In this document: piece after piece, positions 23,223 to 51,214 of the stretch
Layout: every line of letters begins with the position of its first letter
Position numbering within the stretch: position 1 is the stretch's first letter
Assembly (NCBI GenBank): GCA_001821395.1
Contig: MHLM01000012.1
Location: 64,001-128,000, forward strand
DNA from: Candidatus Lloydbacteria bacterium RIFCSPHIGHO2_02_FULL_50_18
GTDB lineage: Bacteria; Patescibacteriota; Minisyncoccia; Phycocordibacterales; UBA6899
DNA length: 64,000 nucleotides
Reading direction: 5' to 3'
Translations under genes and position numbers: made by a program
Notes under the pieces: model-generated
What the model was told of the DNA's origin: nothing
The model's database searches: none
What the model saw: only the letters and a program-made list of their open reading frames with translations

Positions 23223-23487
23223 AAATTTTGTAATTCTGGCGCCCTTCGCGCTTGACTTTGAACGCGAGTCCGACGAACGTACTATGAGGAGTACGTCCGC
23301 ACGGACATCGCATTCTTGCCGCGCGCGAATTGCATCCAGAATAACAAAATTTTTCGTATCGGCTGCAAAATGCAGCAAATAAAATTCCCTCGAAAGGGGA
23401 ATTTTAATTTTACTAAATCGCGTTGCGGACGTAGTGTTTTATGTTATGGTGACGGAAGATCGTTCAAATTTAATGGAGGAGTGCGTT

Positions 23488-24075
23488 ATGTCCAAGAATT
23501 CTTGTGTCACCGTCATCTACCCGAAATCAATTCCAGTGAATAATGGAGCGGAGAATTGTTTTCTCCTTGGGCCCTGCACAAACGCGCCGCCATATCACGA
23601 GGATGTTATTGATATTTTTGCCCGACTCGCGAGAGAAGACAAAAAAATGATCTCCTTGCGCATCAATTGCCCGAAGCGAGAAGGGGAGATGGTCCGTGCG
23701 CTTGATGTTGTTGCTCCTCCCGCAGAGATCCATCATACCTATGCCCGTCAGCGGGAATGGGAGTTCGAGACTCAGGAGAGTGCCGCATTTTCTGCCGGTC
23801 TCTTGTTCTGTTTCGTTAAGCAGGGGAATAATGCTGTTCCCGAGAAGGTCTACGGAGCGATCACCCAAGTGGAGTTTGGCTATTGGCTTGCGCGGGCATC
23901 GGTCGATAGGCGCATACGCATCGCGTATTACTCTGATGGGATATACAACCACCAACTCCGCGTGCTCCTCCATGACATTGAGCGTCTTGCACCATGGCTT
24001 CTCCCGATGCATACTTCGTTTGAGTCATTGTGTGCGCAGTCGCTCGCATGGGCCAAGCAAGGCCCCTCAAAATAG
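23488..24075 (+). CDS. hypothetical protein (island between rpsG and fusA)
   Basis: GGAGG SD 8 nt upstream of MSKNSC start within ORF 23434..24075; no recognised domain. Confidence 0.5.
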   Translation: MSKNSCVTVIYPKSIPVNNGAENCFLLGPCTNAPPYHEDVIDIFARLAREDKKMISLRINCPKREGEMVRALDVVAPPAEIHHTYARQREWEFETQESAAFSAGLLFCFVKQGNNAVPEKVYGAITQVEFGYWLARASVDRRIRIAYYSDGIYNHQLRVLLHDIERLAPWLLPMHTSFESLCAQSLAWAKQGPSK

Positions 24076-24434: not shown

Positions 24435-24777
24435 GAGCATCCTCCATAAATAGATCCGTTTCCGGGGTGATCCCAATACTTTTGATGATCTGCCCGTTGT
24501 CACTCCGTTCGTTCAGGGTGAAACATACCGTTGCAGTACTGTATCCCACGTGACACTTGCTCAGTTTTCCGAGTAATTTGCCTTGCGCGTAGGCGCTGAC
24601 TGTTTTACCGGTGAGCGTGCAAAGTGCAGTGAGATATTGGTCGTTGCGTGCATGGCCCAAGGCTACCGCACTTAGCTCTTTTGCCAACGGATGTCCCATT
24701 TTATTGAGTACATTGACGGCATTTCGGTATTGTTCCTCACGGTACTTGTGGAGTACGTAGGGAATGGGGAATTGCAT
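24427..24777 (-). CDS. hypothetical protein
   Basis: 116-aa ORF, first of a two-gene minus-strand operon inside the rpsG-fusA island. Confidence 0.45.
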   Translation of the reverse strand: MQFPIPYVLHKYREEQYRNAVNVLNKMGHPLAKELSAVALGHARNDQYLTALCTLTGKTVSAYAQGKLLGKLSKCHVGYSTATVCFTLNERSDNGQIIKSIGITPETDLFMEDAHV

Positions 24778-24975
24778 TTGCCTCTCCTTGTTTTGATTTT
24801 GAACTCCTGTGTAAAACTATACATAAGATATTGTTCTTGTAAAGATTCTTTGCAGGTTGCTCAAAAGGGGAGTTTTCTATATAGTAACGCCATTAAGTGC
24901 CCTTTGTGGCGTTTTTGTTTACGCGGCAGTTCGCGTTACGGGGAAGATCATTTATTCGTTTTTTATTCACTTTTT

Positions 24976-27123
<2,148 letters not shown>

Positions 27124-27194: not shown

Positions 27195-27746
27195 ATGTAC
27201 GATGATGAAGATGATGACGACGAAGACGAGGGTGAAATAGGGCTTGATGCAGAAACAGTGCGACGCGAAGAGGCCGAGGTCGTGCAGGGGAAAGCATCCC
27301 GTGCTTTTTATGATGACCTCGCAAAAAAAGAAGATGATCGTCACAATGCGATGCGTCTTGACATGCAACAGCGCGCACTTGCCGCGGGTGAACTCCGTCA
27401 AAAATTACGCAATAAAGAAACCGAGCTGCACGCGCTCCAACTCAAGATCACTATTGAGGAAGACCGTATCGATTATGAAAAAAAGAAAGCGTACCGTCTT
27501 GGAGGAGGTGAATCTATCGCTACGGGAGATGGAGCAACACGATCTGTCCCGATCCCCATACTCTCAAAAGATGTTGACGCTAAGGATGCTGATCAAGAAT
27601 TTTCGGTAGAACACGCTGAAATACACATCAAGCAATTGCAGAGTGAAAAATTGGAGCTTGAAAAGGTGTTGAGCGGAATGAAGGAGCATTTGAATGAAGA
27701 AGAGCGTGCGTTGTCACAACTTCAGCATCAACTCGTTCGCATGTAA
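27195..27746 (+). CDS. acidic coiled-coil protein
   Basis: Poly-Asp/Glu N-terminus (MYDDEDDDDEDEGE), heptad-like E/K/L/Q-rich remainder. Confidence 0.5.
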   Translation: MYDDEDDDDEDEGEIGLDAETVRREEAEVVQGKASRAFYDDLAKKEDDRHNAMRLDMQQRALAAGELRQKLRNKETELHALQLKITIEEDRIDYEKKKAYRLGGGESIATGDGATRSVPIPILSKDVDAKDADQEFSVEHAEIHIKQLQSEKLELEKVLSGMKEHLNEEERALSQLQHQLVRM

Positions 27747-27777
27747 TGGCGTTCTTCTTTTTGTTGCATGATATAAT

Positions 27778-29043
27778 TTGGTCATGCCCGAAGATGAAGC
27801 CAACCAATCCTCAGCCGCATCCGGGAGTCTAGGCGGTCTTCCCGATAGTGTAGCTCCTTCGGCCAGCGTGGAACCAAAAATAATTTCATCACCAGCACCA
27901 ATGGTCTCCTCTGTTGTGTTACCCGTGGCGAATCCTATCGATCCTGCGGCGACAGAGAGTTCCGCAAATAATGAGAAGCATCTGCTACTCATTGCGCATC
28001 TATTGAATCAGGTTCGCATCAAAAAGTCTGAGATAGGTGCTGCTCGCGATAAGATGGGTCAATTGGGGCGCGAGAGCGCGCAATTGCAAACCGAAATGCA
28101 CCATATTGAGCAAGACGTGCGCCGTGTTGAGGGAGAGTTGTACCAGGTCAAGCTTGATGCCAATAAGCAAGAGAGCACGTCAAAAGGAGAGCAGGTTGGC
28201 ATGAACGATAAAGATACGGAACTGAAAAGGCGGAGCGATGGCATCGCGAGGCTCGAGCGAGATATCGATAAATTGAAGCAAGCGATCGCCGAGCGAGAGC
28301 AACGAATAGCTGAGATAAAAACTGAAAATAGTTCACTTGCGAAATCAAAGGAGGACCTCAGGCGAAAGATCGAGCTCGAACTTGCAGGCATCAGGGTCAA
28401 GGCCGAAAAAGCACGCGAGAAGGAAACCGCGATACGGCGCATAAAACAAGATCATGAACGGAAAAAGATGGAGATCTTTCACAAGAAGAGTGCGCCTGTT
28501 GACCGCTTACACTCAGCTCTAGATAACCAGCGGGAGGTTTCCCGACTGGAGTCCGACCTGCGGCATATTGAGCAGGAACTGTCGCGCACAGAGGGCGAGC
28601 TCCGTCTTATCGAAACGAGTGAGCACCAAGAAGAGAATACATCAAGGGTGGATCAGGGTGAGATGCGCAATAGGGATATGGTGATCTATAAAACAGGAGA
28701 TGAGGTTGTTAAGCTCGGCAGAGAGATAGGGCGGCTGAACGTTGAGATTGCCGAGAAGGAAAGTGAGATAGCAAAGCTGGGCGGTGAAGGTCAGGAGTTG
28801 AGAAAGGGAAGAGAGGAGTTACGGCGACGGTATGAACTCGAGCATTTTAGTGCAAACTCAGGATTTACGCTTGCGCATGAGAAAGAGCTTCAGCTCTCTC
28901 GTTTTAAGCAGGGATTTCTTTTGAAGGAGGATAAGATCAAAAAGAACGAACATGCGCAAATACAACTACGCCATGACCTCATCTCCCTTGAGCAAGATCT
29001 GGCAACGGTTGAAGCAGAATTGCGTCATGCTAACAGTGCATAG
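27778..29043 (+). CDS. long coiled-coil protein with threefold repeated L..HIEQ.L.R.EGEL motif
   Basis: Repeats EMHHIEQDVRRVEGELY / DLRHIEQELSRTEGELR / LISLEQDLATVEAELR. Confidence 0.5.
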   Translation: MVMPEDEANQSSAASGSLGGLPDSVAPSASVEPKIISSPAPMVSSVVLPVANPIDPAATESSANNEKHLLLIAHLLNQVRIKKSEIGAARDKMGQLGRESAQLQTEMHHIEQDVRRVEGELYQVKLDANKQESTSKGEQVGMNDKDTELKRRSDGIARLERDIDKLKQAIAEREQRIAEIKTENSSLAKSKEDLRRKIELELAGIRVKAEKAREKETAIRRIKQDHERKKMEIFHKKSAPVDRLHSALDNQREVSRLESDLRHIEQELSRTEGELRLIETSEHQEENTSRVDQGEMRNRDMVIYKTGDEVVKLGREIGRLNVEIAEKESEIAKLGGEGQELRKGREELRRRYELEHFSANSGFTLAHEKELQLSRFKQGFLLKEDKIKKNEHAQIQLRHDLISLEQDLATVEAELRHANSA

Positions 29044-29157
29044 CTCTTGATGTGTAACACACTCTGCCGTCACGGGAGACGAACTCTTGCGGGGAAATCT
29101 AAGGACAACGTCAGGTGATGATATGGTTGTGCTTCGATAGTTTATTGTTCAGTAAAA

Positions 29158-29245
29158 GGTATTAAACCCCAGGGCAAGCCCTGGGCTCGCGATGGGCTCG
29201 CAAAGCCTCGCGCGAGTCTAGGGCTGTGCCGCAGGGTATTAAACC
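29158..29245. repeat. 66-bp GC-rich palindromic element flanked by 11-bp direct repeats GGTATTAAACC (TSD-like)
   Basis: Direct repeats at 29158..29168 and 29235..29245; internal ccagggcAAGccctgg hairpin and ctcgcgcgag palindrome. Confidence 0.5.
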
Positions 29246-29295
29246 TTTTTTAGCTCTCCTCGGCACCACGGAGAGTACTTCATTTTTTTATGTTC

Positions 29296-29343
29296 AGAAT
29301 ATTATCTTAACCTATGCTATAGCATAGGTTAAGATAATATTCT
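29296..29343. repeat. 48-bp perfect palindrome AGAATATTATCTTAACCTATGCTA|TAGCATAGGTTAAGATAATATTCT
   Basis: Exact reverse-complement symmetry over 48 nt in the convergent intergenic region. Confidence 0.8.
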
Positions 29344-29460
29344 TGATGTAGATATACATGTGTACACTTTTTTAATCGCACCACGAGAGTACTTCCATTC
29401 TTCTAAGGTGGAGTACCACCAAGAAGAATTGGTCGCTCGATGAAATCGCTCTACATCGGC

Positions 29461-29492
29461 AATAAAAAAACGAACCCGAGGGTTCGTTTTGT
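29461..29492 (-). terminator. rho-independent terminator for the dNK-like gene
   Basis: Minus strand reads aaacgaaccctcgggttcgtttttttattg. Confidence 0.75.
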
Positions 29493-29494
29493 CT

Positions 29495-30235
29495 TCATTC
29501 AGTGTGCTGGCGCATTTTTCGCGCTTCGGCAACAAGTCGCTCGAGCGTGTCCGTTGCGATATGGTTTACCATCTCCGATTCAGTCATTGTGGTCGTATCG
29601 ATGAGTTGGATCTGCGGATATTTCGGCGAAAGTTCTTCATGCATCGTCCGATAGCGGTCCACGAGTTTGCGGATCGACGCGGGGTTCGATGTCTCACCGA
29701 GCTTGTCCGAGAGTGCGATACGTTGTCCGCGGCGCATTGCTTCTTCAGGTTCACATACCACGACATAGGAGGCGATGATACGGTCTACCCAAAAACGCAG
29801 CAGGAAGAATTGCTGGATGAGTTCACGCTCTTCACCGGAGAGCAGTCCCTTGTCTTGCCAGTACATCATCCACGCGTACGGGTCAAAGATCGAACGATCA
29901 AAGATCACCACATCGTAAGCATGACCATGTGTGTAGTCGATGACCATCTCGAGCGCATAGAGTGCGGTGCGGATGTTGTATTCCGGAGTCGTACGCGGAA
30001 TATGTCCGATTACTTCGGCGCCTTCTTGCGGAATGTGCACGCGCAATCCTCTGCGTTTCAAGAATTTATAAAGTTCCTTGATGCAGGTCGTTTTTCCCGA
30101 ATCCGGAGAACCGGTGAATTCGATAAGGAATGGGCGTGGCAAGAATGTACCTCCGTAACGCACGTCCGTTCGCAGGTATCCGTGCAGCATGTCCGCCATG
30201 AGTTCGAGGCGGGCAATGTCGATGGTTTTTGACAT
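29495..30235 (-). CDS. deoxynucleoside kinase-like P-loop kinase
   Basis: Walker A GSPDSGKTT, downstream DRSIFD (ERS/DRY-like) motif and Arg-rich lid RRGQR. Confidence 0.6.
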   Translation of the reverse strand: MSKTIDIARLELMADMLHGYLRTDVRYGGTFLPRPFLIEFTGSPDSGKTTCIKELYKFLKRRGLRVHIPQEGAEVIGHIPRTTPEYNIRTALYALEMVIDYTHGHAYDVVIFDRSIFDPYAWMMYWQDKGLLSGEERELIQQFFLLRFWVDRIIASYVVVCEPEEAMRRGQRIALSDKLGETSNPASIRKLVDRYRTMHEELSPKYPQIQLIDTTTMTESEMVNHIATDTLERLVAEARKMRQHTE

Positions 30236-30288
30236 GAAATACTCTCTTTCTTTTGAAAAAGTACCAAGCTGTGTTTTACTATACCTGA

Positions 30289-30882
30289 ATGATGCTCAAA
30301 AATAATACTATACAAACAGGGCCCCGTATTGTGGGCTTTGACATGGATGGGGTGATCATCAACCATGCTCCGAATAAGATCATGCTTGCAAAGCGTTATG
30401 CCGTAACACTGCGTCCCGAGGAGACGCACTCGGAACTCCTGCCCGGCAAATTCCCCCGCGAGGAGTATCTTGCCTTCCAGAATATGCTTTATGGTAATTC
30501 GGATTTTGCGCTTTCGGCACCGCTCATGCTCGGTGCATTCGATGTTTTGCACGAGATGAAAGATCGTGGCATCCCCTTCGTGCTGATATCCCGCCGCAGG
30601 GAACCCGAAAATGCCATCAGACTTCTTAAGGAGCGCAAATTGTGGGGCGACTTTTTTACCGAAGCAAATGCTTTTTTTGTCGGCACACCGGAAGAAAAGA
30701 ATGTCGCAAGCGTACGAGAGGGCGTCACTCATTTCTTTGATGATGAGCGTAAGGTGTTGCGCGCCATACCGGACGTGAAAAGGAGATTTCTCTTTGATTC
30801 ACTTCGCCAATTCAATGATGAAGATGAGTTTGAGCGTGTATTTGATTGGAAAATGCTCCGTCAGATCGTTTTTGAGGAATAG
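30289..30882 (+). CDS. HAD-superfamily phosphatase, 5'(3')-deoxyribonucleotidase-like (paralog 1)
   Basis: GFDMDGVIINH motif I (DxDGV); 197 aa. Confidence 0.65.
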   Translation: MMLKNNTIQTGPRIVGFDMDGVIINHAPNKIMLAKRYAVTLRPEETHSELLPGKFPREEYLAFQNMLYGNSDFALSAPLMLGAFDVLHEMKDRGIPFVLISRRREPENAIRLLKERKLWGDFFTEANAFFVGTPEEKNVASVREGVTHFFDDERKVLRAIPDVKRRFLFDSLRQFNDEDEFERVFDWKMLRQIVFEE

Positions 30883-30956
30883 GACAAAACGCGGAAGGTG
30901 CATAAGTCGCTTTGAAGGCTGCGGGGGTCTGATACGATGAAGATGAGGAACCTCTT

Positions 30957-31544
30957 ATGACCATTATGCACGAAGAAGGAATAGTCCTTGGGTTTGATCT
31001 CGACGGGGTCATCATCGACCACACGCAAAATAAAATGCTGATCGCTTCGCGCTACGGTATTGAATTAAGTCCAAAAGATACTCACGCCGAGCACATGGGT
31101 ACGCATTTTACTCCTGAACTCTATCGCGTGATCAAATCCCAGCTTTATGATTCAACTGCGCTCGCGCTCGAGGCTCCTTTGATGGCGGGAGCTTTCGCGA
31201 CATTGGCAAAACTCCGCGAACAAGGGATCCCATATTTCCTCGTTTCGCTTCAGAAGAATCCCATGCATGCTGCGCATTTGCTCGAAGAGCGGGGTTTGTG
31301 GGGTACGTACTTCACTCCCGAGAATACGTTATTCGCACGGAATGCTGATGAAAAGCATGCACTCGCGGCGCAGATCGGTGTCACCCACTTCATTGATGAT
31401 GAACCAAATATCCTCGACGTGATGATCTCGATCCCGAACCGTATATTATTTGATGCGCGCGGACTGTTTCCCGAAAAAACTGACTATTGCCATGTAGAGA
31501 GCTGGAGTGAGCTTGCTGAAACACTGGGAATGGCGAATCGTTAG
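30957..31544 (+). CDS. HAD-superfamily phosphatase, 5'(3')-deoxyribonucleotidase-like (paralog 2)
   Basis: GFDLDGVIIDH motif; colinear similarity to 30289..30882 along the whole length. Confidence 0.65.
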   Translation: MTIMHEEGIVLGFDLDGVIIDHTQNKMLIASRYGIELSPKDTHAEHMGTHFTPELYRVIKSQLYDSTALALEAPLMAGAFATLAKLREQGIPYFLVSLQKNPMHAAHLLEERGLWGTYFTPENTLFARNADEKHALAAQIGVTHFIDDEPNILDVMISIPNRILFDARGLFPEKTDYCHVESWSELAETLGMANR

Positions 31545-31654
31545 CCTCGTACCAGTATCTCAGGTTCATTTTTGCGCTTTGTGGATTTTATGTTATGTTT
31601 TTTCATACGCTGTGAATACCGCGCGTAAGTTCTTTTGAATAAAGGAGTTCGAGT

Positions 31655-31966
31655 ATGACTGAGGCATTGCCTTCTTGTCGGGACATGCTGTGTGACGCGT
31701 TTGTCCGTGAATTTGATGAATTGCCGACAGATTCGATCTGGCTGGTAAGCAAGATAGGTTCCGAATTCGCGCTGTCCTCCGCGACGTCGATCGCTTTTAA
31801 GGAGTGGCTTCGACAACATCAGGGATTTTTCAGTAAATTTCCCCGCAGATATTGTGACTGGAAACGGAGCGATGTGCTGCGGTCGTCAAAGATCATCTCC
31901 GCTTACCGATCGACTTTTTACGTATACATCCTGCCCGATGAGCTAAAGACTTTTCCGGAGTCATGA
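31655..31966 (+). CDS. hypothetical protein
   Basis: AAGGAG SD upstream; 103 aa. Confidence 0.4.
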   Translation: MTEALPSCRDMLCDAFVREFDELPTDSIWLVSKIGSEFALSSATSIAFKEWLRQHQGFFSKFPRRYCDWKRSDVLRSSKIISAYRSTFYVYILPDELKTFPES

Positions 31967-32048
31967 GCATTCCCCGTACCTTTTTGTGTTTCAACACCGA
32001 GCATTGCTCGGTTTTTTATTTTCACACACGATGACGTACAATAGCACT

Positions 32049-32552
32049 ATGGATATCATTTCACATGGTCTCTATGGCGGTGTGCTTGTCGGCAGAAGGA
32101 GCCGTAAAAGTTTTTGGACTTCGTGTTTTTTTGGTATCGCTCCGGATTTGTTCTCTTTTGGCATTTTTACCGCGAGTATTTGGCTGCAGCTTGCTTCCGG
32201 TCCGGACTGGTCTTCGGATCACCCTGACGTTTCGCAGATACCCGATTATGTGAATTTGCTCTATGGTATTACCCATAGCCTTGTTATTTTTGCGCTCGTA
32301 TTCCTCATTGTTTGGTTTATAAAAAAGAAACCCGTCTGGGAAATGCTGGCGTGGGGTTTTCACGTTGTACTGGACATTTTCACCCACAATCTCCATTTTT
32401 TCCCGACACCATTCCTCTGGCCAATATCAGGGTACTATTTTAATGGACATAGCTGGGGTACGTTGGAGGTATTCATCCCGAATCTTACCGTACTTGCCAT
32501 TCTTTATGGCTGGTGGTGGTTTCAAAAAAGGAAGAAACGGGCTACCTCTTAG
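32049..32552 (+). CDS. membrane-bound metal-dependent hydrolase-like protein (YdjM/DUF457-like)
   Basis: MDIISHGLYG N-terminus, 4-5 TM; start taken at internal Met of ORF 31986. Confidence 0.45.
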   Translation: MDIISHGLYGGVLVGRRSRKSFWTSCFFGIAPDLFSFGIFTASIWLQLASGPDWSSDHPDVSQIPDYVNLLYGITHSLVIFALVFLIVWFIKKKPVWEMLAWGFHVVLDIFTHNLHFFPTPFLWPISGYYFNGHSWGTLEVFIPNLTVLAILYGWWWFQKRKKRATS

Positions 32553-32935
32553 CATATCGCGGGACGGCGCCTCACTTTTCATGCGCAGTTCTCTCTCGAT
32601 ATGAACTTCGGATAATTGGGTGCCCCATCATTTAATATCCGCTTAACGTACAAATGTGGAAAAAGCTGTGGATAAGCAGTGAATAAGGCGGATCGCTAAG
32701 AGAGATTGACTCTCAGCCCACATCTGGTATCCTGTGCAGACGTTGCTTCATGTGAGTTTTTAGGTTTGAGCCATTCAGTCGAAAGTATGGCTTAAAACAA
32801 GGAGGAAAACGAGCAGTGCACGTGGAATAAAGTTATACGACCATCTCGTATAACCTCTTGTTTTTACAGTATTGGTCATTTCGGTATTATCCGATGTTTC
32901 CAACGCTGAATTATTTAACTAATCAAAAAAGCTTT

Positions 32936-34126
32936 ATGGCAGATTTTGATCGTTCGAAACCGCATGTGAACGTCGGTACCATTGGTCACGTTGACCACGG
33001 AAAAACCACACTCACCGCTGCGATATTACACGTGCTGCACATGGGTGGATTCGAAGTGAAGATGAAGGGAGTCAACGAGATCGACTCTGCTCCTGAGGAG
33101 CGCGAGCGCGGTATCACCATCGCCCTTTCGCACAATGAGTACTCGACTGCAACTCGCCACTACGCACATATCGATGCGCCGGGCCATGCAGACTATATTA
33201 AGAACATGATCACCGGTGCCGCTCAGATGGACGGTGCGATCATCGTGGTTGCGGCAACCGACGGCGTTATGCCTCAGACCCGCGAGCATGTCCTTCTTGC
33301 AAAGCAGGTTGGTGTGCCAAAGATCATCGTCTTCTTGAATAAAGTAGACATGGTTGATGACCAGGACTTGGTTGAGCTCGTTGAGGAAGAGGTTCGTGAA
33401 TTGCTCACCAAGCAGGGATTTGACGGTGCAAACTGCCCCGTTATCCGTGGTTCAGCATTGAAGGCTCTTGAGTCAAAGACCATTGATGATCCTTGGGCTG
33501 TGAAGATCCTTGATCTTGCAAAGGCACTCGATGAGTACATCCCGGTTCCCGTTCGTGAACTCGACAAGCCATTCCTTATGCCCGTTGAAGACGTCTTTTC
33601 TATCGAAGGACGTGGCACGGTCGTTACCGGCCGTATCGAGCGCGGTGTTTGTAAGGTTGGGCAGGAGGTCGAGATCGTTGGTCTCGCAAAGACCGCAAAG
33701 TCGACCATCACCGGTATCGAAATGTTCAACAAGTCCCTCTCAGAAGGACAGGCTGGAGACAACGCCGGCATCCTTATTCGCGGCATCAAGAAAGAAGATG
33801 TTACCCGCGGACAGGTTTTGGCCGCAACCGGTACTGTTACCCCACACACTGACTTTGAGTCAGAAGTCTATATCCTTTCCAAGGAGGAGGGTGGACGACA
33901 CACACCGTTCTTCTCAGGCTATAAGCCACAATTCTATATCCGTACTACTGACGTGACCGGAGAGGTGACGCTCGCAGAGGGTGTCGAAATGGTCATGCCG
34001 GGAGACACGGTGACCTTCAAGGTGAAGCTCATCGCGCCTGTCGCGCTTGAGGCACAAATGCACTTTGCTATCCGCGAGGGTGGCAGGACCGTCGGTGCTG
34101 GTGTTATTACCAAGATCGTTGCATAA
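32936..34126 (+). CDS. tuf: elongation factor Tu
   Basis: [32 protein letters not shown] motifs; start [10 protein letters not shown] inside ORF 32858. Confidence 0.95.
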
Positions 34127-37672: not shown

Positions 37673-38760
37673 AATGAGTAAAAAACCAGCTATTGTCGAA
37701 CCCCTCAAATTAGATGGCTTAGGGCTAGACTACAACAGGTTTGCAGAAGAACTTTCAACCGCCGAATATGCGCTCGGGTTAATTGAGGGTATGCAAAAAA
37801 ACTACTAAACCCAAATCTTTTGATTAGTCCCCTAACCGCCAAGGAAGCAGCTGCGAGTTCTAAGATAGAAGGAACACAAAGTGATGTGTCCGATGTATTT
37901 ATGTTTGAGGCGGGTGGGGAAACTAAACATGCAGATACACGTGAGGTTGTGAATTACCGTCGAGCAATGCGTTTGGCCATGACGGAGATTAAAAAAGGAA
38001 GAGAGGTAAGCAGTCATCTGGTAGAGACCCTTCACGGAGTATTATTGAAAGATGTCCGTCATATTGGCAATCTTGGAAAATATAGAGAAGGACAAGTTTG
38101 GATTGCCGAACGATCTGGTGATCCAATTGAGAAAGCGATATACGTCCCACCCGAGGCAATACACGTGCGCGGGTTGGCTCAGAATTTGATTGAATACATA
38201 AACGTGGGGAAGGAGAATGCATTGATTAAGGCAGGCGTTGCACACTATCAGTTTGAGGCAACTCATCCATTTGATGATGGGAATGGGAGAATTGGGAGAC
38301 TCCTTATTCCAATTGTGTTACACAGACATCAGAGATTGTCATCACCAATTCTTTATCTTAGCGGCTACTTTGATGATCATCGAGATGAATATATCGCGAG
38401 GCTCCATGCATTGGATGATGGTGCTGATATGGAAGATTGGTTAAAATTTTTTTACATTCGGTTAGCCAGCAGCTCGGTCAAACACAAAAAATAATTGAAG
38501 GAATTTATGAACTCTATGACCAGCTTAGACTTGAAAATAGGGGGATAAAATCACCATTCGTTATTCCCCTCATTGATATGATGTTTGAGATGCCAATTTT
38601 TACGTTGGCCATGGTGCAAGAATCAACTAAATGCTCGAGCTATATAACTGCATCGACACTAATTAAGAGAATGATTGATGCGGGTCATGTTGAAAATGTA
38701 GGAAAGGTTGGAAGGGAAAAGCTTTATGAATTCCGCTCGCTTGTAAAAGTATTAAAATAA
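37673..38760 (+). pseudogene. Fic/Doc family protein (HPFxDGNGR) disrupted by two -1 frameshifts at 7-nt homopolymers
   Basis: Three consecutive frames encode Fic_N (..GMQKK|LLNPNLLISPLTAKEAAASSKIEGTQ), core with HPFDDGNGRIGRLL, and C-terminal wHTH-like part; breaks at A7 (~37795) and T7 (~38455); restoring 8 nt at each gives one ~360-aa ORF. Confidence 0.7.
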
Positions 38761-38888
38761 TCAATGAATCTGTCCTGGTAAGGAAATTAATCACAATTGA
38801 TTTCACAAAATTTTTACTTCCTTTACTTCCCACTGAAACCCATGTAGTTTGACGGGGGATTGATACGTACTTTAACAGGAGAAATCCG

Positions 38889-39546
38889 ATGAGTATTGGT
38901 GAAAATGTTTTTGAGCGTACGGGTCCTTCGACCATGTCGGCGCGCGGTTTCTACGGCGCACTGGGATTGATCGTCGCGTTTGGGCTCTGGTTATCAAGTC
39001 TCGTGGCGGCAGAGTTCACTGCATGGCAGCCGTCACTCATGGTGATACTGCTTGTCGGGCTCGGCATCCCGATCATCGGCATTGTGATCGCTGCGAAGTC
39101 TGAGACTCCAGCGATCTCATTCCTCGGCTACCTCATGGTGGCGGTGCCATTCGGGATGCTCCTGGGGCCAACGCTCAATCAGTATTCGCCCGAGGTCGTG
39201 CAAAAGGCGATGTTCTACACCGCGGCGACCACGCTCGTCATGGGTGCGGCGGGCGTGCTCTATCCGAATTTCTTTGCGCGGATCGGCGGCGCACTCTTCA
39301 TGGCTCATGGCACTCATCGGGCTTGTCGTTGTGCGCGTCATCGGCATCTTTATTCCCGCATTGGGCAACATGTCGGCCATCGACTATATTTCTGCGGGTA
39401 TCTTCTCGCTTTACATCGGCTACGATATGTACCGTGCAAGTGCAATGCCGCACACGCTCGACAATGCCGTTGACGCCGCATTGTCCCTGTATCTCGACAT
39501 CATCAATTTGTTCCTCAGTTTGCTCCGGATATTCGGCAAGAATTGA
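38889..39546 (+). pseudogene. Bax-inhibitor-1/YccA family membrane protein disrupted by 7-bp tandem duplication
   Basis: tcatggc|tcatggc at ~39298..39311; removing one copy joins ORFs 38889..39473 and 39244..39546 into ...GGALFMALIGLVVVRVIGIFIP...LYLDIINLFLSLLRIFG. Confidence 0.65.
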
Positions 39547-39698
39547 TCGTTTCGTTTTAAACTCGGCATACGCCGGGTTTTTTGTTGCATGTATTTGTCA
39601 CGATGGTTGATCTCAGCCTCGCGAGCTGGTGGTGTTGCGTCTCACAGCCACTTGTGTTTGTATGGTCACAGCGTTCATTTGATCACAAAGGAGAATTC

Positions 39699-40199
39699 AT
39701 GTTGCTCGACAAATTGGTTCCCGTTCTCGGTACGCCCATTCGCATTGGTGTACTTATGGAAAGCAGTGGCGATGGAACAAAAATACCATTTTTCCTCATC
39801 GATTTTGGTAAAGAGTATCCATCGATCGAACCGTTGATCGCCAGAAATGGCACAATGACGCTCGACATCGTACCGGATGGTGACCACTGTACTTTCCACG
39901 TCACTGGAGATCGGATGGTCAGCGAGCTCACTCCCGAGCTTTTGAATCGCGCGCTCGCCGCACCGCCTGAGACGAGGAACCAAGTATTGTTCGGGCAGGG
40001 AAGGCCCGAATTCGCTTCAAGTGTTACGCTTTCAGGCGAATCATGCGAGCAATTCATCGAAGCATTCACTGCAGGCGGCGGGTTCTGGCTTCTCGTCACG
40101 CTCAGTCAGTCCGGAACTCGATCCGTGATCGCTCCAGACGGTGAGATCATTCGTACTGAGTCGTGTTCGCGCTTGGAACTTGAGTATCTCTTGGGTTAA
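39699..40199 (+). CDS. hypothetical protein
   Basis: Internal Met MLLDKLV of ORF 39582; followed by terminator 40210..40247. Confidence 0.4.
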   Translation: MLLDKLVPVLGTPIRIGVLMESSGDGTKIPFFLIDFGKEYPSIEPLIARNGTMTLDIVPDGDHCTFHVTGDRMVSELTPELLNRALAAPPETRNQVLFGQGRPEFASSVTLSGESCEQFIEAFTAGGGFWLLVTLSQSGTRSVIAPDGEIIRTESCSRLELEYLLG

Positions 40200-40209
40200 G
40201 GTTTGCCGT

Positions 40210-40247
40210 GCAACACCCCGACGTGTCGGGGTGTTTTTGTTTTTTCG
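40210..40247 (+). terminator. rho-independent terminator
   Basis: caacaccccgacgtgtcggggtgtttttgtttttt. Confidence 0.75.
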
Positions 40248-40274
40248 GTAAATAAAAACTCCGCAGATGCGGAG

Positions 40275-40634
40275 TCAGTCGGGCTTGAAAAGTTTTGCAA
40301 GAAGTTCTTGCGGGAGAATGTTCGGATCGAGCGGCAATGCATCCAATTCGTCAGCCGACCCTATCGTCTCTCGCGACTCAGCGATCTCGAGTGTGCGGAC
40401 GAGGAGCAATATCAATGCAGTGATATATTGCCGGAATTCATCAGCGGTCTGCGTAGCTACCTCTTCGTGTGCACTTTTTGCACGCTCCCCGATCAGTTCA
40501 ATGAGTCCTCCAAGAGAGGGATTAATTTCTTTTAATCGCAGTACGTGAGTCGTAATGTGTGCAATGAGGGCCGGCCGTAATTGTGGAAGTTCACGGCTTG
40601 CCGCCAAAACATCCAAGGGCATGACATGTTTCAT
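40275..40634 (-). CDS. hypothetical protein
   Basis: 119 aa; its own terminator hairpin (aactccgcagatgcggagt) on minus strand at 40255..40275. Confidence 0.4.
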   Translation of the reverse strand: MKHVMPLDVLAASRELPQLRPALIAHITTHVLRLKEINPSLGGLIELIGERAKSAHEEVATQTADEFRQYITALILLLVRTLEIAESRETIGSADELDALPLDPNILPQELLAKLFKPD

Positions 40635-40795
40635 GGATACTCCATGTGGTGAACAGTGCGCTTACTCTGTTGTACGCGCGAGCGTATGTTGTGTCAAGAA
40701 ATAGCGACTGCATCCCATTTTGTTGTTGAATGGAATGTTTCATCCCGCCCCGTCTGCTCGCTTTACATCTTTTATTGTTGCGTTAGAGTAAGCAT

Positions 40796-41116
40796 ATGTT
40801 TAACTTCAATAAAAAACCGATCCCTGAAGATCGAATAATGACGTGGGAGGAGGAGGCGACCTTCCCCATTGAGCTCCAAGAAGCAGCTCTCTCGAGTTTG
40901 ATAGAAGTCGCACAGCGGCAAGGAGCATCTTCGGTCGATCTTGAAAAACAATTGAATACGATTGAGATCAAGAGACGGGTCATTCTCTGGCTCGGAACTT
41001 TTCCTGATATAGCAGAGAAGAATGCTGCGATCGAACGGGCAAATGCGGAGGGTTTGCCGCCGGAGATATTCACTACTCCGGAGTTTGTTGCTCCGGAAGT
41101 TGAGACGCTCCAATAG
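40796..41116 (+). CDS. hypothetical protein
   Basis: 106 aa; terminator 41165..41197. Confidence 0.4.
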   Translation: MFNFNKKPIPEDRIMTWEEEATFPIELQEAALSSLIEVAQRQGASSVDLEKQLNTIEIKRRVILWLGTFPDIAEKNAAIERANAEGLPPEIFTTPEFVAPEVETLQ

Positions 41117-41206
41117 GCGGTGTGCCGTGGTCTTTTGACCTTGCCACCCCTGGTCTTTGAACGAAAAACCCGCTCATTAGTAGCGGGTTTTTGTAACAGA
41201 GCTCCC

Positions 41207-41272
41207 CTATTTCTTTCCTCCCTTCTTCGGCTTCTTTGCCTCCTTCTTGATGTTGTTGTCTCCGCGTCCCAT
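41207..41272 (-). CDS. putative 21-aa lysine-rich micro-protein (MGRGDNNIKKEAKKPKKGGKK)
   Basis: ATG..TAG small ORF immediately followed on minus strand by palindromic terminator hairpin 41165..41197; paralog of 41362..41427. Confidence 0.3.
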   Translation of the reverse strand: MGRGDNNIKKEAKKPKKGGKK

Positions 41273-41361
41273 GTTGTATGCGTCTATTGATAATATTGCA
41301 CAATTATATCATGACACAGCAAAACACCACCGCACATTTGTGCGGTGGTGTTTTGCTTGTT

Positions 41362-41427
41362 GTTATTTCACTACGACCTTCTTTGGCTTTTTCTTATTTT
41401 TCTGCTGTGCATTGTTTCCTTTTGCCA
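41362..41427 (-). CDS. putative 21-aa lysine-rich micro-protein (MAKGNNAQQKNKKKPKKVVVK)
   Basis: Same length and pattern as 41207..41272; followed by palindromic terminator 41318..41353. Confidence 0.3.
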
Positions 41428-42028
41428 TGACGTATTGCTTATACTGCTAATGAACGAACGTATCTTCAGTGTAGCAGATTTTCGTCATGACATGAAAATG
41501 CCCGGTTGTACCCATGTTGATAGTGGTCATACGGACCGACCCATGCTTATTTGCAAAAACAGGGGATAACTTTCACTACGGAAGGCGCTTTGAGGCTATA
41601 ATGGTGACAACATTTTCGCACATTACGCGCTGGGTGCTTTTGGAGTAAAAAGCGAGCAGGACGTAGTGTGAGAAGATCCACAAAATGGATCCTTATGCTA
41701 TGTTCCAGCGAATGGACATATCGTTGCGGAGAAACAAAAACTTCGTTAACGGTAGAGGTTAGTCGTATATCTTTCTTATCAACATCGTGGATACGCGTTC
41801 GTTGCCTACAGCAAGGAATGTGAAAAGTGATGAAGAGAAGTACTCTGGAGCCAATTTTTATGAATCCGTTGTCGAGTGCTAAAAAGCAAAAGTAACGATC
41901 GCCAATCGTCCTCCCGCATAAAAAAGTATCTGTAGTACTTTTTATGCCAGAGTGCATGCTCATCGAAAGATATCAACGAATTGTCATAGCGCCGCGTTCA
42001 GGCAAGAACGCGGCGTTATGTATTGAGG

Positions 42029-42146
42029 ATTGAGAACATAGCAAATTTCTTTGTTGAAACATGAACATGCAAGCAAGCCGTACTCCGAGTACGGCTTGCT
42101 TGCATGTTCATGTTTCGTCTCGAACTTTGCATATGTTCTCAATCCT
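42029..42146. repeat. ~118-bp near-palindrome with 25-bp perfect inner arms (ATGAACATGCAAGCAAGCCGTACTC|GGAGTACGGCTTGCTTGCATGTTCAT)
   Basis: Inner 52-bp perfect palindrome 42061..42112 flanked by imperfect inverted arms GGATTGAGAACAT...ATGTTCTCAATCC. Confidence 0.75.
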
Positions 42147-42231
42147 AAAGGATGAATGTCCAATCGCTACTGTTGCGATTTTTTTATTATCTGGCAGTCT
42201 GAGTACAGAATGGTCTTCGAGGGAGGCAGGA

Positions 42232-42918
42232 ATGGTTCAAGCATCAGTCAACAAAGAGCAACTAGATAAGCTTCGAAATACTTATTGCGATGCAGCGCAG
42301 TACTTGGGTGTCCCACGCACAAGTGCAGAACGATGTTTCACGAAACTCGCGCAATACTATGCTGAACCGCATCGGCGCTATCATACGCTGGCTCATCTGC
42401 ACCAGTGCATGGTTGAGTTTGCGGATGTAGTGTGGCACAGTCAGGATCCTGCGCTCATTGTCATGGCTATTTTTTACCATGATATTACGTACGACGTTCA
42501 TCGCAACGATAACGAAGCGAAGAGTGCGTTGTATTGGAAATTCATTGCCCGCCATGTACTCGAAGTGAAGAACGAAGGATTCATCGCCGAGGTCGCCCGA
42601 TTGATCGAACTTAGCGGCGAACATCGTACGGACCCTGTCACTGATCCTGATGCCGCGCTCTTCCTCGACGTCGACATGTCGATTCTAGGAGCTGACGCAC
42701 CGGAGTACGACGCATATGCGGCCGCAGTGCGACAGGAGTATGCGCACTGCAGTGACGATGAATGGGCGTTTGGTCGCGTTGCGAAGTTCCTTGATCCGAC
42801 CTTGTGTGAGGACAGAATATTTCTCACTGATATCTTTCGTCAAAAATATGAAGAAAATGCGCGCGCAAACCTGATGGAAGAGCGTTGCCGCTATCAAAAA
42901 AACCTACCGCTCGCATGA
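42232..42918 (+). CDS. HD-domain metal-dependent phosphohydrolase
   Basis: RYHTLAHLH and FYHDITYD (H..H / HD) motifs; start at MVQASVNK downstream of the palindrome; terminator overlaps stop (42903..42930). Confidence 0.55.
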   Translation: MVQASVNKEQLDKLRNTYCDAAQYLGVPRTSAERCFTKLAQYYAEPHRRYHTLAHLHQCMVEFADVVWHSQDPALIVMAIFYHDITYDVHRNDNEAKSALYWKFIARHVLEVKNEGFIAEVARLIELSGEHRTDPVTDPDAALFLDVDMSILGADAPEYDAYAAAVRQEYAHCSDDEWAFGRVAKFLDPTLCEDRIFLTDIFRQKYEENARANLMEERCRYQKNLPLA

Positions 42919-43017
42919 GCGGTTTTTTCTTGACAAAGAGTATTTGTTGTGGAGAATCAAGAACGGCAGTCCCAATAGGGAAAGCCGTTCTTTTACAACC
43001 AACCGAAAGGATAACTC

Positions 43018-43866
43018 ATGAGCGAGATAGCCGAAAAAGTAAACCCATCGACCGATGGGCAGATGAAAGACCTCACCAGCGTTCTGGTGACCGCCATGCC
43101 CGATCACGAAAAATTCCCACGGGAACAAATCGAGTATTGGATGAAAAACAAGCGCTTGCTCGCGGCAAAGGTGCGCGCAGTGCTTGAGGGGGCCCCACGT
43201 GGCCTTGGGCAAACAACGCAAGAAGTGCTGCAATCCTGGGAGCGATTTTATCGCGAGATACTCAAAATAAAAGTCGACTTCTCGGATATCGATACTCCGC
43301 CACGTTTTAGTGAATTTAAGGCCATTATTCCCGTGATCTCATCTATTTCCGCAGAAGAAATTGTCGGTTTACTCACGAAAAATTTCAATCATGAATTTAG
43401 TTTGAGAGACTTTCAGTGCAACTTAGATGAGCTCTCGCACTTGCGTCCGGAGGGGCACTATGCGGTTTTGCACCGAGGTACTCGAATGCCCGATCTCGAT
43501 ATGCAGATCACCAGGCAGCGAGCTACTGAGGGTGTGGTCGCGAGGTACACTTGCGTACATCCTCCCGTCGATGCTTCTTCATTTATGAATCCAAGGGAGT
43601 ACATCCTTTTTGCGGCGTTCAACGTCTGGATGACATCTGGTCGTCACTCGTCACCATGGTTCGACTACGACATTGCTGGCACTAATTTTATTGGCGAGAG
43701 AGCGCTCCCTGGAACCGCGTTCCCACAGATGGATGCTTTTGATCGACCACTGGCCGCGTGTTGCCACTCTAGCAATAACCATGAGTGCCACATTGAACAC
43801 CCTTGTGGCTTTGAAAATTCCTACGGGCGACTTGTGAAAGTACTTTCTTCCTTGCGCATCGCATAA
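43018..43866 (+). CDS. hypothetical protein; shares a local motif with ORF 50374..51195 (possible paralog)
   Basis: RPEGHYAVLHRGTRMPD vs RPRCTYVVVHRGGMEPD; terminator 43871..43906. Confidence 0.5.
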   Translation: MSEIAEKVNPSTDGQMKDLTSVLVTAMPDHEKFPREQIEYWMKNKRLLAAKVRAVLEGAPRGLGQTTQEVLQSWERFYREILKIKVDFSDIDTPPRFSEFKAIIPVISSISAEEIVGLLTKNFNHEFSLRDFQCNLDELSHLRPEGHYAVLHRGTRMPDLDMQITRQRATEGVVARYTCVHPPVDASSFMNPREYILFAAFNVWMTSGRHSSPWFDYDIAGTNFIGERALPGTAFPQMDAFDRPLAACCHSSNNHECHIEHPCGFENSYGRLVKVLSSLRIA

Positions 43867-43899
43867 CGTGTTTATCACCACCGAGAAATCGGTGGTTTT

Positions 43900-44970
43900 T
43901 TATATGATGAGCATTCCGTCGCCGAATGAGTAGAAGCGGAATTTTTCCCTTATGGCGATGTCGTAGAGCGCGAGGATGTCGCGCTTCGCTCTTTTGTGTT
44001 TGAGGAGTGCGTCGACCAAGAGCATGAGTGATGAGCGAGGGACGTGGAAGTTCGTAATAAGCCCATCTGCAATCTTGAATTCGTACGGCGGGTAGATAAA
44101 TATATTCGTAGGCTTAGAACATTGCTCAACACTCCAAGGTTCCACCTTGGAGTGTTGGATTGCAGCGGATTCGAGGGTACGCATGGCGGTAGTGCCGACG
44201 GGGATGATGGGAATACCCGCCGCTTTTGCACTATTTATTTTTTTTGCGCTTTCCTTTGTGATATCGAGATACTCCGCAAAAAGTTTTTTACTTTTGAAAT
44301 TTTGTTCATCAATCGGCGCAAAGGTACCCGCACCTACATGAAGCGTGACCTCCGTACGCGTGATGTGTTCACGTTTCATTTTTTCGAGTAAGCGATCGGT
44401 GAAATGGAGCGACGCCGTTGGTGCTGCAATTGACGCGGGATATTTCGCGAGAATACTTTGGTATTTTTCACGCAATGTGTGCTCGGACATCGTATTGCCC
44501 TTGATATATGGGGGTATTGGCGTCACACCCTCTTTCTCGAGCAAACTCCAAAGGCTGCCTTTGGATACACTGGGATTGAAAAAGAAAAATTGCTCTTCTT
44601 GTCTTTCGACCTCAAGGTGCGCCCCTGACTTAAAGAAGAGTTTGGCACCGGGAAGGATCTTGCGGTCGACCACTCCTTTAATAGAGATGTCGCCGGGACG
44701 GAATTCATTCATCATGAGAAGCACCTCGATCTTGCCGCCCGTTTCTTTGGAAAGCCACAATCGGGCAGGAACGACCTTTGTATCATTAAAGACAAGCAGG
44801 CTGGGTTTGGGGAGATATTGGTCAATATTCCGGAAAACATCAAAATGCACCTTATCAGTTTTCGTATCGTAGACGAACAATCGAGCGGAATCTCGCGGAG
44901 AAGCGGGCTCATTGGCGATAAGCCCCTCAGGGAGGTGGTAGTTATAATCATCGAGAGAGATCATGTGCAC
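43900..44970 (-). CDS. queA: S-adenosylmethionine:tRNA ribosyltransferase-isomerase
   Basis: LPEGLIANEPASPRDSARL, PIPPYI, AAPTASLHFT, HVGAGTF, TNFHVPRSSL, YSFGDGMLI motifs. Confidence 0.9.
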   Translation of the reverse strand: MHMISLDDYNYHLPEGLIANEPASPRDSARLFVYDTKTDKVHFDVFRNIDQYLPKPSLLVFNDTKVVPARLWLSKETGGKIEVLLMMNEFRPGDISIKGVVDRKILPGAKLFFKSGAHLEVERQEEQFFFFNPSVSKGSLWSLLEKEGVTPIPPYIKGNTMSEHTLREKYQSILAKYPASIAAPTASLHFTDRLLEKMKREHITRTEVTLHVGAGTFAPIDEQNFKSKKLFAEYLDITKESAKKINSAKAAGIPIIPVGTTAMRTLESAAIQHSKVEPWSVEQCSKPTNIFIYPPYEFKIADGLITNFHVPRSSLMLLVDALLKHKRAKRDILALYDIAIREKFRFYSFGDGMLII

Positions 44971-45035
44971 ATGCTATCAGGTGAAGCAATATGGGCAAGC
45001 TTTTCTATGTTTAGCAACGTATTTTCGACTTTTTT

Positions 45036-45056
45036 TGTCAAGGTTTAACCTTGACA
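45036..45056. repeat. 21-bp perfect palindrome TGTCAAGGTTtAACCTTGACA (second copy of 24159..24179)
   Basis: Same arms and same gtattttc...ttttttt 5' flank as copy 1. Confidence 0.6.
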
Positions 45057-45179
45057 ATTTTAAGTGGTGCGTTTGCGGCTACGATAATATTCCACAGATA
45101 ATCCACAGAGTTATCAACAGCAAAATGTAATAATTATGGCAAAAAATAACCCCAACCCTTCGGTCGGGGTTGGGGTAGG

Positions 45180-45419
45180 TCAGTCGACCTCTGTGATGGT
45201 AAACTTTTCGCTGCAGGAGTAGAGGAAGCCCTCCTCGAGTCCCCAACAGAAAAAGAACATCCCGTCGCCCTCCTTGGGGGGCACCCCATCCTTATTCGAA
45301 ACGGTCGTTACTCCACCTTCGCGAGTGACTTTGACGTCAACGTAGGACCTGGTGGAACTTAAATCTTCCATAAATTCTGCGTGCTCATCTTCGGTGAGTA
45401 TCGCTGTGGCTATTTTCAT
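45180..45419 (-). CDS. hypothetical small protein
   Basis: 79-aa ORF upstream of queA on same strand. Confidence 0.4.
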   Translation of the reverse strand: MKIATAILTEDEHAEFMEDLSSTRSYVDVKVTREGGVTTVSNKDGVPPKEGDGMFFFCWGLEEGFLYSCSEKFTITEVD

Positions 45420-48345: not shown

Positions 48346-48714
48346 ATGATACAACCACGCACAATAGTAAAGATCGCTGATAATTCCGGAGGAAAGGTCG
48401 GACGTATCTTTAAGGTTCTCGGCGGTTCGAAGAAGCGCTATGCGGGTCTCGGTGATCTCGTCGTGCTTTCTGTACAGACCGCAGAACCACGTAAGGGAGT
48501 GAAGAAGGGCGAGGTCTGCCGCGCGGTCGTCGTGCGCGTAGCAAATGCTTTTCGCCGACATGACGGATCGTACATCCGTTTTGACGAGAATGCGGTCGTG
48601 CTGATCGATGCAAAGAATGAGCCTCGTGCCGGTCGCGTTTTTGGCCCGATCCCTCGTGAGATCTCAGAAAAGGGATTCAAAAAGATTATTTCTTTGGCCC
48701 CTGAGGTCGTTTAA
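48346..48714 (+). CDS. rplN: 50S ribosomal protein L14
   Basis: MIQPRTIVKIADNSGGK... Confidence 0.95.
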   Translation: MIQPRTIVKIADNSGGKVGRIFKVLGGSKKRYAGLGDLVVLSVQTAEPRKGVKKGEVCRAVVVRVANAFRRHDGSYIRFDENAVVLIDAKNEPRAGRVFGPIPREISEKGFKKIISLAPEVV

Positions 48715-48727
48715 TTTCAATCGGCTT

Positions 48728-48961
48728 ATGCATATAAAAAAAGGAGACGAAGTAGTGATCCTCTCGGGAGATGATAAGGGGAAAAAGGGTAAGGTCGCTC
48801 ATGTGATGCCGAAGCTCGGCACCGCGGTCGTCGAGGGCCTCAACATGCGAAAGAAGCATCAGCATGCTCGTCAGGATGGAAAGAAGGGGCAAGTCATCGA
48901 AATAGCCATGCCGCTCCGTGTGTCCAAGTTGGCATTGGCAGACAAGCCAAAGAAGAAATAA
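48728..48961 (+). CDS. rplX: 50S ribosomal protein L24
   Basis: MHIKKGDEVVILSGDDKGKKGKV KOW motif; start inside ORF 48608. Confidence 0.9.
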   Translation: MHIKKGDEVVILSGDDKGKKGKVAHVMPKLGTAVVEGLNMRKKHQHARQDGKKGQVIEIAMPLRVSKLALADKPKKK

Positions 48962-48971
48962 TTGAACAACC

Positions 48972-49583
48972 ATGAACGTCCCAACAATAAAAGAAAAGAT
49001 AAAGTCCGCATATCCAAAGCTGAAAGAGAAGCATGGATATAAGAACGTCATGCAGGCACCTAAGGTGGAGAAGGTCATCATTTCCGTGGGCACCGGTAAG
49101 ATGTCCCGCAATGACAAGAAGAAGAATGAGTTCGTCGCGAGCCGGCTTGGTATGATCACCGGACAGAAGGCGTCTGCACGAAAGGCAAAACAATCGATCG
49201 CTTCGTTCAAGCTTCGTGAGGGTGATGTCATCGGACAGATGGTCACGATGCGCGGGAGCAAAATGATGGGTTTCCTCGACAAGCTTGTGAACGTGGCTAT
49301 CCCGCGTACGCGCGACTTCCGAGGATTCCGTGCCGCCTCGATCGATGCAATGGGGAATTTCACCCTTGGTATCAAGGAGCACACGATCTTCCCTGAGACT
49401 GCAGATGAAGACCTGAAAGACGTCTTCAGCCTCGCACTCACTGTCGTTCTTTCAACGAGGAACAAGGAGGAGTCCATTGATTTCTTGGAGCACCTTGGTT
49501 TCCCGTTCCGCGAAACTGCGAACGAGGGAAAGAAAAAGAAAGAGAAGAAGGTTGACGCCCCAAGTAAGAAGTGGAAGAAGTAA
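48972..49583 (+). CDS. rplE: 50S ribosomal protein L5 with Lys-rich C-terminal tail
   Basis: L5 family core; C-terminal EGKKKKEKKVDAPSKKWKK. Confidence 0.9.
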   Translation: MNVPTIKEKIKSAYPKLKEKHGYKNVMQAPKVEKVIISVGTGKMSRNDKKKNEFVASRLGMITGQKASARKAKQSIASFKLREGDVIGQMVTMRGSKMMGFLDKLVNVAIPRTRDFRGFRAASIDAMGNFTLGIKEHTIFPETADEDLKDVFSLALTVVLSTRNKEESIDFLEHLGFPFRETANEGKKKKEKKVDAPSKKWKK

Positions 49584-49589
49584 TTACCG

Positions 49590-49760
49590 CTCAGCATTGC
49601 TTTTTGAGAGCACGGATAAAAGTCTGCTGACTTTTTCCACCGCAAGGGTACTTCCAATTTCATACTCCCTATGGTCGTTGAAATTTAGGTCGCTCACACC
49701 TCGCACTGCCCGGCTCCGTAGCCTCTCAAAAAGCAATACTTCGCTCCCAGGTTCGTTTTT
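49590..49760. repeat. palindromic intergenic repeat element (copy B) downstream of rplE, with ~75-bp internal insert sharing cctcgcactgc / aaatttcaac modules with the 34.6/37.5-kb elements
   Basis: Reverse complement aligns to 45596..45700; insert aligns in pieces to copies C/D. Confidence 0.65.
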
Positions 49761-49837
49761 CGAGCGGGGATCCGAAAAGACTTATTGTCTTCGCCCAAGA
49801 GGATCGGAGTTCGCGTTTGAAATACAAAACCCGCTCA

Positions 49838-51195: not shown

Positions 51196-51214
51196 TTGCT
51201 GAGCCGACACTTGT

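Follow-up and report, generated by a model that had tools for sequence, protein, structure and literature searches.

A kinase gene divergently paired with NT5C-like HAD phosphatase genes is conserved in Paceibacteria and is a candidate module of nucleotide salvage

Here we describe, in a 64,000-nucleotide stretch (hereafter the window) of the genome of Candidatus Lloydbacteria bacterium RIFCSPHIGHO2_02_FULL_50_18 (contig MHLM01000012.1, positions 64,001 to 128,000), a P-loop kinase gene (K) divergently linked to two tandem HAD phosphatase genes (H1 and H2; H denotes the phosphatase family). On balance, we favour the reading that K and H1/H2 represent a conserved kinase/phosphatase pair of Paceibacteria, most likely of housekeeping character, which acts on (deoxy)nucleoside phosphates and is probably co-regulated. 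Paceibacteria and other bacteria of candidate phyla are thought to rely on nucleotide precursors that they scavenge, and the enzymes that re-phosphorylate these precursors are poorly defined. No description of the K family or of the K-H gene pair was found in the literature; the pair is a variation within known enzyme superfamilies and not a new kind of system.

Architecture of the locus

K (29495-30235, minus strand) encodes a 246-aa P-loop phosphotransferase whose formal Pfam match is AAA_28. H1 (30289-30882, plus strand) encodes a 197-aa, NT5C-like HAD phosphatase with a complete set of catalytic motifs, and H2 (30957-31544, plus strand) encodes its 195-aa paralogue, which retains intact catalytic motifs and has diverged in the cap region and around motif II. 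A first-pass annotation had described these three open reading frames (ORFs), their divergent layout, the K motifs GSPDSGKTT and DRSIFD with an Arg-rich lid, the motif I sequences GFDMDGVIINH (H1) and GFDLDGVIIDH (H2), and a setting between fusA and tuf, all of which agree with the ORFs of the window. In fuller form the K motifs read FTGSPDSGKTT and FDRSIFD with the lid MRRGQRIALSDKLGETSNP, and the flanking genes are fusA (24691-27123) and tuf (32858-34126). A 247-aa plus-strand ORF opposite K (29489-30232) is a shadow ORF. The G+C content is level throughout the region, which therefore bears no sign of recent foreign origin.

K and H1 are separated by a divergent intergenic region of 53 nt (30236-30288) that contains a promoter-like site for H1 (TTGAAA-18-TACTAT). 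Gaps of 39-94 nt are also found between K and H in 33 other loci, where a -35-like TTGTCA or TTGTAA (as read on the H strand) lies beside the ribosome-binding site of K. From these sequence features we infer a promoter role for the K-H intergenic region. Directly after the stop codon of K lies a bidirectional terminator-like hairpin (29467-29490), recognized by pattern match only; its stem (AAAACGAACCC/GGGTTCGTTTT) is 10 bp long, with a run of T after it on either strand.

Linkage, distribution and duplication history

Conservation of the pair was surveyed using one genome per species, which yielded 54 loci with K relatives, 50 of them with enough upstream sequence for analysis. H is located divergently upstream of K in 45 of these 50 species-level Paceibacteria genomes, which include Lloyd-, Azam-, Giovannoni-, Yanofsky-, Harrison- and Jorgensenbacteria. 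The two genes are directly adjacent in 33 of the linked loci (the gaps being typically those given above) and are separated by one intervening gene in the remaining 12. Divergent linkage at this frequency far exceeds what chance would produce.

The general unit is one kinase and one HAD phosphatase, and the trio occurs only in the Lloydbacteria-like clade: besides the window, only four Lloydbacteria-like loci (L004-L007) have two H genes, while L052 carries an H2-type copy. The paralogy of H1 and H2 noted in the first-pass annotation is borne out both by their similarity (39% identity over 181 aa, E 3e-53) and by a neighbour-joining tree, which places the H1 clade as sister to the H2 clade. 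The second copy thus arose by a tandem duplication that is specific to the clade and older than the divergence of these species. Identity is 68% within the H1 clade, 64% within the H2 clade and 42% between them, and a comparison of clade consensus sequences shows that the differences cluster in the cap.

The order fusA...K-H...tuf, together with acidic coiled-coil genes and a gene for a YdjM-like membrane protein, is likewise confined to the Lloydbacteria-like clade. Consequently, the placement of the genes in an 'island' interrupting the str operon is uninformative on their function, although it could be taken to suggest an accessory role. Defence or dNTP depletion had been proposed as such a role, as could polynucleotide end-healing by a P-loop kinase and HAD phosphatase like those of T4 Pnkp, which the kinase-HAD combination formally resembles, and H2 has a marginal motif I match to the PHROG family 'polynucleotide kinase' (E 0.009). 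We consider any such reading very improbable. K, H1 and H2 have no PADLOC match at E<=0.01, a tblastn search of 50,697 phage genomes returned no homologues, and about 90% of related species carry the pair in highly conserved form, a stable, housekeeping-like distribution unlike the patchy one of defence genes. With the PADLOC and phage genome searches both empty, the reading as a defence or phage-derived module was rejected.

The kinase K forms a family of its own

The AlphaFold model of K is confident (pLDDT 91) and has the thymidylate kinase (TMPK) fold. A Foldseek comparison with viral models returned only deoxynucleoside kinases (dNKs) and dTMPKs, in an even mix (TM ~0.6), and two PHROG 'thymidylate kinase' families match K (1e-7 and 1e-5). 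The P-loop GSPDSGKT (residues 42-49) fits the GxxxxGK[ST] pattern, with G42, G47 and K48 invariant in an alignment of 43 members. Further invariant elements of that alignment are GxPxxGKT, PxEGAE, HxxRxTPxYNxRT, YD...DR...D...WM..W..K and the lid R169...G180..NP; H78, R81, Y86, N87, R89, D118 and W122 are among the invariant residues. Mean column identity is 57%, unusually high for an alignment across lineages of candidate-phylum level, and because of this very strong conservation we consider a housekeeping role most likely. A search for homologues of K returned 307 proteins, annotated as 'hypothetical', 'AAA family ATPase' or (JGI) 'thymidylate kinase'; every source name that gives a taxon belongs to a Patescibacteria lineage, and one protein, from a Candidatus Lloydbacteria genome, is 100% identical.

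Assignment of K to a known family was marginal at best. The Pfam gathering cut-off is 27 bits for each of dNK (PF01712), Thymidylate_kin (PF02223) and AAA_28 (PF13521). AAA_28 is the sole Pfam family whose threshold K passes, marginally (27.8 bits; residues 38-150, profile positions 2-120 of 164), while Thymidylate_kin scores 13.2 bits, KTI12 gives a near-threshold match and PF01712 has no match to K of the window at E<=1. When relatives of K were scanned member by member (E<=0.01), AAA_28 matched 42 of 43, Thymidylate_kin 15 (best E 2e-5) and dNK one. No NCBIfam family came close to its cut-off, and searches of PDB sequences, run both with single proteins and with family profiles, yielded no more than P-loop-level similarity for K and motif I-level similarity for the phosphatases, with no family assignable. 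In hhalign comparisons of the K profile with single, approximate sequences, E. coli Tmk reached 14% and human dCK 1% probability, values that are uninformative and do not count as a negative.

K has in common with Tmk (PF02223) the P-loop, the DRx motif and the lid segment, but its P-loop reads GSP[DS][SA]GKT rather than GxDGxGKT, it has a unique invariant insert (PQEGAEVIRHIPRTTPxYNIRT), and it carries one more helix at the N-terminus and a long helix at the C-terminus. Moreover, a separate canonical Tmk gene lies less than 7 kb from K in three related genomes, and K is thus not the canonical Tmk of these genomes. These genes, all on the minus strand, are found at L049 3861-4685 (PF02223, 91 bits), L053 3790-4596 (94.7 bits) and L040 9076-9750 (44.9 bits). 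The Tmk proteins of L049 and L053 have an N-terminal region of about 100 residues, which the profile matches only separately.

The first-pass annotation had placed K in the dNK family, a placement that the Pfam scans above do not uphold. If K were nevertheless a true deoxynucleoside kinase and H1/H2 were 5'(3')-deoxyribonucleotidases, the genes could run a substrate cycle like those of mammalian TK2-dGK/mdN or dCK/cdN. dNKs are characterized by the motif ERS and by a catalytic Glu that follows strand 2. K has an invariant PxEGAE (E71/E74) after strand 2, a possible counterpart of that Glu; viral dNKs head the Foldseek list; P0176, a tandem double-K protein, passes the Pfam dNK threshold (36 vs 27 bits); and an NT5C-like partner would be consistent with such a cycle. 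In place of ERS, however, K has a TMPK-like FDR[SC] motif in which D113 and R114 are invariant, PF01712 fails to match K of the window or all but one of its relatives, and the hhalign score against human dCK is very low, albeit in a weak test. We regard this reading as unlikely. Opposing kinase and nucleotidase activities are established for mammalian dNTP pool control, and their logic is shared by the dNK and cdN/mdN cycles and the K/H pair; the classical cycles are not known to have their genes physically and divergently linked, as K and H are. Judged on sequence, K is neither a canonical Tmk nor a member of the Pfam dNK family; it belongs to the dTMPK/dNK fold superfamily as a family of its own.

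The AAA_28 match points to a further alternative, in which the two would serve NAD salvage, K phosphorylating nicotinamide riboside as an enzyme of the NadR-RNK type and H acting as a nicotinamide mononucleotide (NMN) 5'-nucleotidase. AAA_28, which we take to include the ribosylnicotinamide-kinase (RNK) domain of NadR, is matched by nearly all relatives of K, and NadM-Nudix proteins resemble the K-NUDIX fusions described below. On the other hand, the AAA_28 match is marginal and extends over no more than the first two thirds of the profile, TMPK and dNK structures score clearly above NadR or NRK1, and no NAD-related genes occur in any examined neighbourhood, making NAD salvage a quite improbable function.

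The HAD proteins H1 and H2

Both phosphatases have the NT5C-type structure, with a core and a small helical cap after motif I, and NT5C is their best match in both sequence and structure. The catalytic residues of motifs I (DxDGV; D18-x-D20-G-V), II (S101), III (K137) and IV (DD; D151-D152) are invariant or nearly so in the alignment of the H family, and the H1 clade and the H2 clade both retain them. The matches to NT5C (PF06941) are near end-to-end, with 21.0 bits for H1 (profile positions 3-174 of 180) and 20.0 bits for H2 (3-172 of 180), but lie below the gathering cut-off of 24.8 bits, and the generic Hydrolase family of Pfam scores about as high as NT5C. H1 and H2, like K, have many homologues, of which a search with H1 returned 55. 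Among 49 members of the H family (E<=0.01), 43 match NT5C over its full length (best 7e-8) and 45 match a generic HAD model; none of the Pfam matches is to a sugar-phosphatase family. The earlier description of H1 and H2 as NT5C-type thus stands as the best reading, although formal family membership is borderline, both proteins falling short of the Pfam threshold.

Other partners of K and K-like domains

An exhaustive profile search identified 976 relatives of K, several of which are joined to other hydrolase domains. In three of the 54 loci a K-like paralogue of 460-480 aa with a degenerate P-loop and a C-terminal CYTH/triphosphate-tunnel (TTM) domain is encoded on the minus strand, either convergent with and immediately after K (L016 7145-8584 and L045 4402-5790) or approximately 3 kb downstream of it (L042 10817-12082). 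The CYTH/TTM assignment is based on matches to PH1819 (E 2.5e-6) and the Saci_0718 TTM (E 8e-5). Outside Paceibacteria, many relatives of 440-470 aa (e.g. P0224 and P0242) carry the K motifs at the N-terminus; four such proteins were scanned against Pfam, and two have a weak C-terminal NUDIX match. The 663-aa P0320 from 'marine bacterium AO1-C' passes the NUDIX cut-off (33.9 bits). Two NUDIX-like repeats are apparent in P0320 from its repeated sequence, of which Pfam gave one stretch. The neighbourhoods of two genes of the K-NUDIX type (L058 6001-7992 and L059 683-2077) held nothing informative on function, and L057, a K-like match from Clostridium, is a fragment broken by a frameshift, with equally uninformative surroundings. 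The K kinase domain thus pairs again and again with phosphohydrolases, whether of the HAD, NUDIX or CYTH fold.

In 13 of the 54 loci, a Paceibacteria-only protein of approximately 230 aa is encoded between H and K, on the strand of K and directly upstream of it (e.g. L008 5753-6445, L017 1612-2313 and L040 6279-6974); it is absent from the window. It has the motifs GQKFVYRE, MDGIHR and a C-terminal LFRDLKYLGIDG, and several members pass the Pfam family Parb-CE (PF24392; 26.6-27.4 bits, cut-off 23). In L053 the ParB-CE protein precedes the canonical Tmk rather than K. A dCTP deaminase gene overlaps the end of K by 8 nt in one Azambacteria genome; it was considered as a conserved third member and rejected, being seen in that genome only, whereas the recurring gene of about 230 codons encodes the ParB-CE protein.

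These couplings bear on the possibility that K is a polyphosphate (polyP)-linked kinase like PPK3 or PPK2, which would use or make polyP to phosphorylate nucleotides, with the HAD, NUDIX and CYTH partners as (poly)phosphate hydrolases. TMPK-fold paralogues that occur alongside a canonical Tmk can be polyP kinases (PPK3), and NUDIX proteins are typical PPK neighbours (PMC12995831). K resembles PPK3 in occurring together with a canonical Tmk in the three genomes mentioned above, its fusions include both NUDIX and CYTH/TTM domains, and many of its Arg, His and Lys positions are invariant. Yet Pfam gave no PPK2 match for K or its relatives, and the NT5C-like partner is not a known polyP enzyme. 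PPK3 operons comprise a catalytic and a regulatory paralogue with PPX, CHAD or Pst neighbours. No PPX, CHAD or Pst genes were seen in the examined K neighbourhoods, the window has a single K, and the K-like paralogue with a degenerate P-loop and a CYTH domain accompanies K in only 3 of 54 loci. Canonical TMPKs also remain the top-scoring matches. A polyP-linked function appears improbable.

Proposed function of the pair

In the favoured reading, K would phosphorylate a nucleoside or a nucleoside monophosphate, with ATP as the most likely donor, and H1/H2, acting as Mg-dependent phosphomonoesterases of the NT5C type with the Asp of DxDGV as nucleophile, would remove the phosphate again. Deoxynucleoside monophosphates (dNMPs) are another candidate substrate of K. 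Divergent transcription from a shared control region of about 50 nt would allow the two activities to set the balance between nucleosides and nucleotides, serving salvage and pool homeostasis or sanitation in organisms that rely on scavenged nucleic-acid precursors. The duplicated phosphatase copies of the Lloydbacteria-like clade have diverged in the cap, or substrate, region, which suggests two substrate preferences. The analysis establishes the genes themselves, their folds and intact catalytic motifs, the conserved pairing and the history of the duplication; the nucleotide substrates, the opposing logic of the reactions and the co-regulation are what we infer. The salvage or pool-editing module of the first-pass annotation is plausible and fits the strong conservation in Paceibacteria, but its three-gene form is a peculiarity of one clade.

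The nucleotide-related context, namely the dCTP deaminase, the nearby Tmk and the ParB-fold protein of a nucleotide-binding type, may be counted in favour of the proposed function, as may the NUDIX and CYTH/TTM fusions, both of which are nucleotide or polyphosphate hydrolase folds. Several points weigh against it. In Pfam, NCBIfam and the PDB profile search, K is above threshold for no characterized family except the catch-all AAA_28, and no residues that would bind dTMP or deoxynucleosides could be located. Few genomes have the dCTP deaminase neighbour, and few the Tmk neighbour, and the three Tmk neighbours compare with approximately one expected by chance, which is not significant. Finally, chemistry on polyphosphate or on other phospho-metabolites would also be consistent with partners of the HAD, NUDIX and CYTH folds.

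More tentatively, K may found an unrecognized functional family within the dTMPK/dNK superfamily whose members always come with a phosphohydrolase partner (HAD in Paceibacteria, a fused NUDIX or CYTH domain elsewhere), and often with a ParB-fold protein that binds nucleotides. Such a family might supply the 'missing' salvage activity of the ultra-small Paceibacteria, for instance as a broad (deoxy)nucleoside/dNMP kinase, possibly driven by polyP, for life on scavenged host nucleic acid, with the HAD enzyme proofreading or throttling the pool.

Genomic surroundings

The str/S10/spc ribosomal-protein array (window positions 22251-62291) is broken several times by unrelated genes, namely at rpsG|fusA, fusA|tuf (27195-32552), rplB|rpsS (~37820-45419) and after rplN (~48686-57320); with the exception of fusA and tuf, gene names in the array were read from ORF translations and are not profile matches. 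The rpsG-fusA interruption contains a 213-aa ORF (23434-24075) with no Pfam match. Directly after fusA are two acidic/coiled-coil proteins (27195-27746 and 27778-29043) with only weak coiled-coil matches of the SMC, ATG16 and YabA kind, the first of which is kept at the same position in the Lloydbacteria-like loci L004, L005 and L007.

The 450-nt non-coding gap downstream of K contains a perfect 48-nt palindrome (29296-29343; AGAATATTATCTTAACCTATGCTA and TAGCATAGGTTAAGATAATATTCT), near which a direct repeat, GGTATTAAACC, brackets a GC-rich stretch (~29158-29250). Rfam identified no RNA family in the window, the palindrome and repeat region included. On the other side, a 440-nt gap (31545-31985) separates H2 from the YdjM-like membrane protein gene, and a 103-aa ORF within it (31655-31966), which has no Pfam match and no homologue in any related locus, is probably non-coding.

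Conclusions

The K family, which is tied to an NT5C-like phosphatase in approximately 90% of the genomes examined, offers a candidate, open to inexpensive testing, for one of the core steps of salvage or pool control in Paceibacteria. Recognition of this family would also correct the likely mis-annotation of its members as 'thymidylate kinase' or 'AAA family ATPase'. The coupling of one kinase domain to phosphohydrolases of three folds (HAD, NUDIX and CYTH) is a pattern that is worth explaining in itself.

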